A stretch of DNA of 64,000 bases, from the NCBI RefSeq assembly GCF_024298765.1, contig NZ_CP101210.1. One strand, written 5' to 3'. Of this stretch, positions 17,140-17,840 are shown one piece after another. This DNA is from Escherichia coli. GTDB lineage: Bacteria > Pseudomonadota > Gammaproteobacteria > Enterobacterales > Enterobacteriaceae. Under the pieces are notes generated by a model. That model made no database searches. It was not told where the DNA came from and saw only the letters and a list, made by a program, of their open reading frames with translations. The translations under genes were made by a program, and so were the position numbers. The number at the start of each line of letters is the position of its first letter. Position 1 is the first letter of the stretch.

Positions 17140-17840
17140 TCCAATCAGTAGAACATGTGCTTTTCAATGAAGGAACCGATGACTTTTTCGTGGATTGCAA
17201 CGGAACGCGAGAAGCAGATTGTTTTACTTACCAGCCGCTTGATGCGGGTGCGGAGGGTCAGGTTGTTACGTTCAATACGTTGCGTGAAGATTTTGCCGGT
17301 CAGGTATTTCTCCTTCGGCACTTCTCTGGCGTAGCTGCCCCAGTCATCGCGGCCACCATGCCGATACAGAACGGAGTCAACAGGGCTAACAATTCCCGAC
17401 AGGCCTCATCATTCCGTGGCCCGAAAGTGTAAGCCAACACACCGCCAGTTTTAGTGTTCTACGCATACCAGAGCCAGTGTTGTTGCGCCTTGTTGCCAAC
17501 GAAGCTCCACAGCTCATCAAGTTCACAGATAAGGGCAACATCAGCGTGAGCTGACTGACGCAGATGTTATCCGCTGGGGCGAGAGCTTTTTAATGTCCGT
17601 ATGACGGTATTGATGCTGATTTTCAGTGTTCTGGCGATATCACGGCCCCTGTGCCATTATGCGCCATTTCAACGATCAGCTCCTTAAAGCCGGGTTTTCT
17701 GGCTTCATAAGAGTAAGTGAGCTGGAAAACACGTTTACATGAACGACAACGGAAACGCTCATGCTGGGAACAACTACGACCATGTCGATAAACTTTATCG
17801 GAATTACAGCGCGGACAATGAACAGTAACGGTAGCCATGG
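17140..17840 (-). mobile_element. Remnant of a divergent IS1-family element (InsA-like plus InsB-like fragments)
   Basis: Minus-strand ORF 17623-17838 (MATVTVHCPRCNSDKVYRHG...) resembles IS1 InsA zinc finger/HTH at roughly half identity; downstream minus-strand frame resembles the InsB C-terminus; no intact ends identified. Confidence 0.6.

Follow-up and report, generated by a model that had tools for sequence, protein, structure and literature searches.

What kind of insertion sequence (IS) adjoins the vat toxin gene of Escherichia coli, and does it reveal anything about the origin of the island that carries both? The question is raised by a 64,000-nt stretch of E. coli DNA (RefSeq assembly GCF_024298765.1, contig NZ_CP101210.1; hereafter the window). 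An earlier note, made from the sequence alone, had placed there an IS1-family remnant that it distinguished from two canonical IS1 copies at 50457 and 58969, and had read from it a different donor history for the vat island. In elements of this family, InsA (a zinc ribbon plus a helix-turn-helix, HTH) acts as a repressor and binds to the terminal repeats, and a −1 ribosomal slip on a run of A residues fuses InsA to InsB' to yield InsAB', a DDE transposase acting on inverted repeats (IRs) of ~23 bp. Our analysis revealed that the neighbor of vat is a full-length, mutationally dead IS1-family element. We are highly confident that the sequence at 17131-17895 is a dead copy from an IS1N-like clade, representing a distinct IS species that is neither IS1N nor classic IS1.

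A complete IS1-family element with degenerate genes

The region was aligned with six relatives, within a set that comprised public-record sequences and the window's own two IS1 copies. Together with the location of the IRs, this alignment placed the ends of a complete 765-bp element on the minus strand at 17895 and 17131. The left IR, on the insA side (17872-17895, minus strand), reads GGTAATGTCTTCAATTGATAGAAG and is identical to the IS1A left repeat at 13 of 23 positions, whereas the right IR of this minus-strand element (17131-17154), which reads GGTAGTGCTTCCAATCAGTAGAAC inwards on the plus strand, retains 14 of the 23 positions of its IS1A counterpart. The two repeats match each other at 16 of their first 24 positions and begin GGTAATG and GGTAGTG, respectively. 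Both the length and the ends thus correspond to those of the family (~740-800 bp, imperfect IRs of ~20-25 bp starting with GGT(A/G)ATG), and in alignments the element is coterminal with IS1A, IS1N and the other relatives. The element indeed lies where the earlier note had put it (17140-17840), but it extends beyond that range on both sides and is a pseudogenized full-length copy with both IRs rather than a truncated remnant. In strain 104, the NCBI Prokaryotic Genome Annotation Pipeline (PGAP) describes these bases as 'IS1 family transposase; frameshifted; internal stop', and it calls this pseudogene in every genome inspected. The element, already annotated as such in hundreds of E. coli genomes, is an ordinary molecular fossil.

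As it stands, insA is a truncated open reading frame (ORF) of 71 codons on the minus strand (17623-17838). Its translation, which starts MATVTVHCPRCNSD, resembles IS1 InsA; the ~63 first residues are authentic InsA, comprising the zinc ribbon and half of the HTH, and the tail is out of frame. Accordingly, the Pfam profile Zn_ribbon_InsA is matched by residues 1-35, and of the 46 positions of HTH_Tnp_IS1 only 1-24 are covered. When the minus strand was translated in three frames, the remaining pieces of InsA and InsB' emerged scattered across all of them. Conceptual undoing of four lesions, described below, restored InsA to 91 aa and placed insB' in the −1 frame with respect to insA; the two together specify an InsAB' of 231 aa. 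The native frame is broken, and domain scores for the full proteins were taken on this repaired product. It matched DDE_Tnp_IS1 over 131 of 131 profile positions (E 5.7e-66), HTH_Tnp_IS1 (E 2.1e-23) and Zn_ribbon_InsA (E 7.8e-20), and scored 244.7 bits against the NCBIfam model transpos_IS1, for which the cut-off is 100 bits. The repaired protein thus contains the InsA zinc ribbon, the C-terminal HTH of InsA and the IS1-type DDE domain. These matches, well past anything expected by chance, bear out the family membership proposed in the earlier note, with no assignment to a non-IS1 family, and nothing that we found contradicts the identification. The DDE domain itself is specified by the insB' frame at 17145-17584 (minus strand), broken by three of the lesions, whose end at 17145 is also that of the PGAP pseudogene. 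Plus-strand ORFs antisense to insB' (91 and 59 aa) and small ORFs in the flanks yielded no Pfam match at cut-off.

The alignment further uncovered a putative programmed −1 frameshift motif of the A5G type, TTAAAAAGC, at the join between InsA and InsB' (17585-17593, minus strand). After repair, insB' is joined to insA at −1 on this A-run, as in other family members, although slippage itself is predicted. The motif is A5G throughout this IS species, except for A4G in the Enterobacter mori copy, and A6C in classic IS1 and IS1N. In mutagenesis of IS1, Sekine and Ohtsubo reportedly found the first four A residues of the slip run to be essential, so A5G is predicted to still permit slippage. The E. 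mori copy, with only four A residues at this site, is nonetheless annotated by PGAP as a 230-aa transposase.

Four private lesions and apparently neutral decay

Four lesions, all on the minus strand, account for the loss of both genes. The first is a 1-nt deletion that leaves a G4 run at 17646-17649 where all relatives have G5, and shifts the insA frame inside the HTH. The other three fall in insB': a 1-nt insertion (A) near its start at 17552, a nonsense codon at 17459-17461 (TAC to TAG), and a 1-nt deletion between bases 17350 and 17351 that shifts the frame just before the SDDW motif. The latter aligns with TDGW of IS1 InsB, in the region of the second catalytic Asp. With insA frameshifted in its HTH and insB' disrupted by an insertion, a stop and a frameshift ahead of the catalytic region, the element can be regarded as an inert fossil, probably devoid of any present function.

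Comparison with four copies of the same IS species evidenced that the three 1-nt indels and the TAG codon are all private to the window lineage. This lineage also accumulated 23 substitutions of its own, among which 16 are nonsynonymous, one is nonsense and four are synonymous; GC-to-AT transitions make up 14 of the 23. This pattern looks neutral, as in unconstrained sequence, with no purifying selection evident. The copies of two distant carriers, strains UTI89 and SCU-123, differ from that of the window by three substitutions and by no indel, all indels being common to them.

A distinct IS species related to IS1N

We then placed the element among its relatives. The closest copies were those adjoining ipaH7.8 on pINV, both pseudogenes, with 95.3% nucleotide identity in Shigella flexneri and 95.0% in enteroinvasive E. 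coli (EIEC). They were followed by two apparently intact ones, from Enterobacter mori (P0001; 93.8% nucleotide and 90% amino acid identity) and from an E. coli assembly (P0003, 231 aa, at locus L009; 91.6% and 88%). Over their full length, these copies of one IS species thus share 91.6-95.3% of their nucleotides with the window element, and have the same IRs, gene layout and, but for the E. mori A4G, slip motif. They differ from it in lacking its three indels, its stop codon and its private substitutions, and the pINV copies carry a frameshift in insB' different from any of the window lesions. In their own records, the pINV copies lie at 1501-2270 (L002) and 1501-2265 (L007). Farther relatives, degenerate and 83-88% identical, were found on E. 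coli plasmids and, on an E. coli chromosome, between sitD and iutA. The latter is a 5'-truncated relative (L006, 2501-3138) with 88% identity by local BLAST and 84% by full-length alignment. The ipaH7.8 and sitD-iutA sites thus add to the surroundings of virulence genes in which this species, or one close to it, occurs.

The closest relatives that bear a specific name are proteins called 'IS1-like element IS1N family transposase', which raises the alternative that the element is an iso-form of IS1N, the Shigella dysenteriae element, and hence an already named IS. In support of this assignment, IS1N belongs to the same IS1-family clade and has an InsAB' of the same 231 aa, with the same domain order, a common IS1N-type N-terminus and similar IRs. 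Nevertheless, the element is only 74.7% identical to the S. dysenteriae copy at the nucleotide level and 81-82% identical to PGAP-named IS1N transposases at the protein level. These values are well under the ISfinder convention for iso-forms, which is set at ~90% for nucleotides and 95% for amino acids. IS1N further differs in its A6C slip site and in being intact and multicopy. In addition, PGAP gives the intact relatives of the window element the generic name 'IS1 family transposase', whereas IS1N, IS1A and ISEc30 receive specific names. We therefore consider it very unlikely that the element is an IS1N iso-form, and retain its assignment to a separate species of the IS1N-like clade.

Separation from the classic IS1 copies was deeper still. 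Both classic copies of the window are complete (50457-51224 and 58969-59736, 768 bp each, as against 765 bp here) and, like K-12 IS1A, they share the architecture of the element, that is, the GGT(A/G)ATG ends, the −1 frameshift between insA and insB' on an A-run, and the three Pfam domains. In sequence, they diverge from it strongly, with ~50% DNA identity, 39% between InsB' proteins, IRs identical at only 13-14 of 23 positions and, for InsA, 41% identity (37/90) after repair or 38% as it stands. The earlier note, which had called InsA roughly half identical to the canonical protein, thus overstated this similarity, but rightly attributed to the element an origin distinct from that of the classic copies, given such deep divergence.

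The two classic copies, in turn, are not equivalent. Only that at 50457 is nearly identical to K-12 IS1A, as had been stated for both, with two differences in 768 positions. The one at 58969 departs from IS1A at 45 of 768. With 43 differences between them (94.4% identity), the two represent different iso-forms. PGAP names the former an IS1A family transposase and the latter an IS1 family transposase only, and annotates the programmed frameshift on both, which are intact and reside in a different, strain-specific island. No 9-bp target duplication was found at these copies, either singly or at their outer ends as a composite. The segment between them contains two DUF262 genes, an IS3 and methylase fragments.

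Invariant linkage of the element to vat

Distribution was investigated in 5,426 complete E. coli genomes. Matches of ≥99% identity to the element came from 539 records, the median number of places per genome being one, and in 534 genomes both of its flanks were found separated by exactly 765 bp. A search for the empty site, with the two 500-bp flanks joined, retrieved none in the whole set; all 534 full matches were split by the 765 bp. Similarly, the junction between the IS and vat was present in 534 genomes, and no vat without the IS was seen in these complete genomes. Linkage to vat is therefore invariant, with the element fixed beside the toxin gene in about 534-539 of the 5,426 genomes.

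These profiles bear on the alternative that the element is non-autonomous but still mobile, moved in the manner of a miniature inverted-repeat transposable element by cognate InsAB' provided in trans by an undamaged member of its species. Such mobility would be consistent with the presence of both IRs, which resemble those of the apparently intact relatives, and with the apparently intact transposase of the same species found in one E. coli assembly (P0003, 231 aa; L009). A mobile element is nonetheless difficult to reconcile with ~534-539 genomes that each carry a single copy, always in the same place. Moreover, when an intact copy was sought in complete records of E. coli and Shigella (H26, H95, H96, H99), all close relatives inspected turned out to be pseudogenes. 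As for the resident classic IS1, its IRs match those of the element at 13-14 of 23 positions and its proteins are ~40% identical, which would make cross-mobilization unlikely. Continued mobility thus appears most improbable, and the data favor a dead copy that stays where it is.

A rearrangement junction upstream of vat

Target-site duplications are the mark of a fresh insertion and not of the IS1 family as such. We searched for one of 8-9 bp in the flanks of the element, ATCAAAAAC and CAACGTTCA, and found none. On the left, the element cuts off an internal fragment of an unrelated gene (17030-17130, plus strand) that is 94% identical to positions 3001-3101 of a locus from strain 23CRST030 (L011), where it lies inside a 375-aa hypothetical coding sequence adjoining a SIR2-family gene. 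This homology ends at the IS end and is not continued beyond the other end of the element. A truncated foreign gene fragment at this position indicates that the IS sits at a rearrangement junction and not at a simple insertion site, and the lack of a target duplication agrees with the element having later taken part in a rearrangement. The source locus in 23CRST030 looks like a defense island, and its upstream region has a weaker match (71%) to window positions 16925-17024.

On the other side, an AT-rich spacer of 535 bp (31% GC) separates the IS from vat, which starts at 18431. The IS itself has 48% GC, against 31-32% in both flanks. This arrangement could suggest that the element has been recruited to control vat, by way of the zinc-ribbon peptide InsA' or of the IS end ~535 bp upstream. 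It might, for example, provide a promoter directed outwards or, being richer in GC, delimit an AT-rich, H-NS-silenced promoter region. Besides the difference in GC content, the invariant linkage to vat favors such a role, as does the regulation of vat by H-NS and VatX reported in a review (PMC6956023). Several observations argue otherwise. insA is directed away from vat. A consensus promoter scan of 16900-18500 returned three sites against 4.7 ± 2.5 expected, none of them on the plus strand from the IS towards vat; indeed, neither promoter nor terminator consensus sequences in this interval exceeded shuffled expectation. Half of the HTH is missing from InsA', and the substitutions (16 nonsynonymous and one nonsense against four synonymous) bear no trace of purifying selection. 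A simpler cause of the linkage, besides, is hitch-hiking with vat, which lies 0.5 kb away and is passed on as a block. A regulatory role is thus scarcely credible, and passive carriage of a dead element beside vat accounts better for these data.

Three further observations concern vat. The interval ~18265-18654, that is, the last ~165 bp upstream of the gene plus its signal-peptide region, is 91.5% identical to a plasmid-borne autotransporter locus of E. coli DG343-1 with an extended signal peptide region (ESPR) (H179). The region immediately next to the vat promoter is therefore common to vat and another locus encoding a serine protease autotransporter of Enterobacteriaceae (SPATE). In strain 104, vat is interrupted by an insertion of ISVsa5, an IS4-like element (L013, 22519-23727), which the window does not have, and in the UTI89 assembly vat is annotated as frameshifted.

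Tandem thrW islands separate vat from the IS1 pair

Direct string matching revealed a 46-bp stretch (24140-24185) that reproduces exactly the 3' half of thrW, the gene for a tRNA-Thr. No tRNA was retrieved by scanning the window, and ARAGORN makes no call at this partial copy; by collinearity with strain 2020CK-00188, the full thrW lies past the window end, at ~74.3 kb. The vat module accordingly spans 7.2 kb (16943-24139) and is followed by the partial thrW, an attachment (att) repeat, and then by a second thrW island carrying the IS1 pair. Genome comparisons map the same boundary. Positions 1-24185 are collinear with strain 104, and from 24134 on the window follows the island of 2020CK-00188, a strain without vat, which matches the window only from ~24.1 kb and has pao genes in place of vat. 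At the opposite end, a C-terminal integrase remnant lies to the left of the element (16770-16928), and its resemblance to integrases adjacent to thrW stops at 16942, the very position at which thrW would start. Collectively, these data identify the vat module as one unit in a tandem array of thrW islands, with the classic IS1 copies in the neighboring unit.

The partial thrW next to the integrase remnant is kept over 47 bp in strain SK1144; the window keeps only 'TGG..ATAATA' there. Within the second island, ~2.1 kb of the window (29517-31665) are absent from the otherwise collinear island of 2020CK-00188, in which the Ag43/Cah and JAB-domain genes are annotated as partial.

The two units also differ in distribution. 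An uninterrupted match to the interval 40000-64000, in which the IS1-bracketed segment lies, was obtained in just one of the 5,426 genomes, as compared with ~534 for the vat module. This contrast and the 46-bp att repeat indicate separate histories for the two regions. The earlier proposal that they differ in history is thus sustained by the att-repeat boundary and by the distributions, but not by the argument from IS type on which it had been based. An IS inserts independently of the recipient DNA, and this copy lies at a junction without a target duplication, so the type of IS is uninformative on the donor of the island.

Discussion

We propose that the element arrived, by insertion or recombination, at the end of a small thrW-linked vat module that is nearer to yagU, before the module spread, and that it would have been inactivated before this spread and inherited passively with vat thereafter. 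This order of insertion, inactivation and spread is the likely one. Mobility in trans, co-option by vat and identity with IS1N are all unlikely for an element that occupies one fixed locus, bears no trace of purifying selection, has insA directed away from vat, lies in a region without promoter signals beyond shuffled expectation and is 75% identical to IS1N.

Some features do weigh against a wholly inert fossil at a junction. Both IRs are intact, and mobilization in trans by a cognate transposase is formally possible. The 71-aa InsA' still has its ATG and an undamaged zinc ribbon and, judging from its sequence, might be made as a residual DNA-binding peptide. The missing target duplication, finally, may reflect old mutation of the flanks, though the foreign gene fragment argues for a junction.

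The element shared by the vat module, pINV and Enterobacter could be a separate IS1-family species without an ISfinder name, characterized by its A5G slip site. Its dead copies beside vat and ipaH7.8, along with the truncated, less closely related one that lies between sitD and iutA, would then be traces of an ancient common stock of mobile DNA out of which those unrelated virulence modules were put together. We advance this picture tentatively, as one possibility and not the most probable one.

The observation that started this work is thus partly confirmed and its interpretation partly supported, for a feature that is ordinary and already annotated in RefSeq. The result is mainly a matter of annotation tidying, in that the element next to vat is a complete but dead member of the IS1N clade and not a truncated one. 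Real evidence for the separate arrival of vat and the IS1-bracketed region comes instead from the tandem-island boundary at 24140-24185. The four lesions, the junction and the position of the element recur in about one-tenth of complete E. coli genomes, which makes this fossil a stable marker of the vat module that could serve for typing or for dating the spread of vat.
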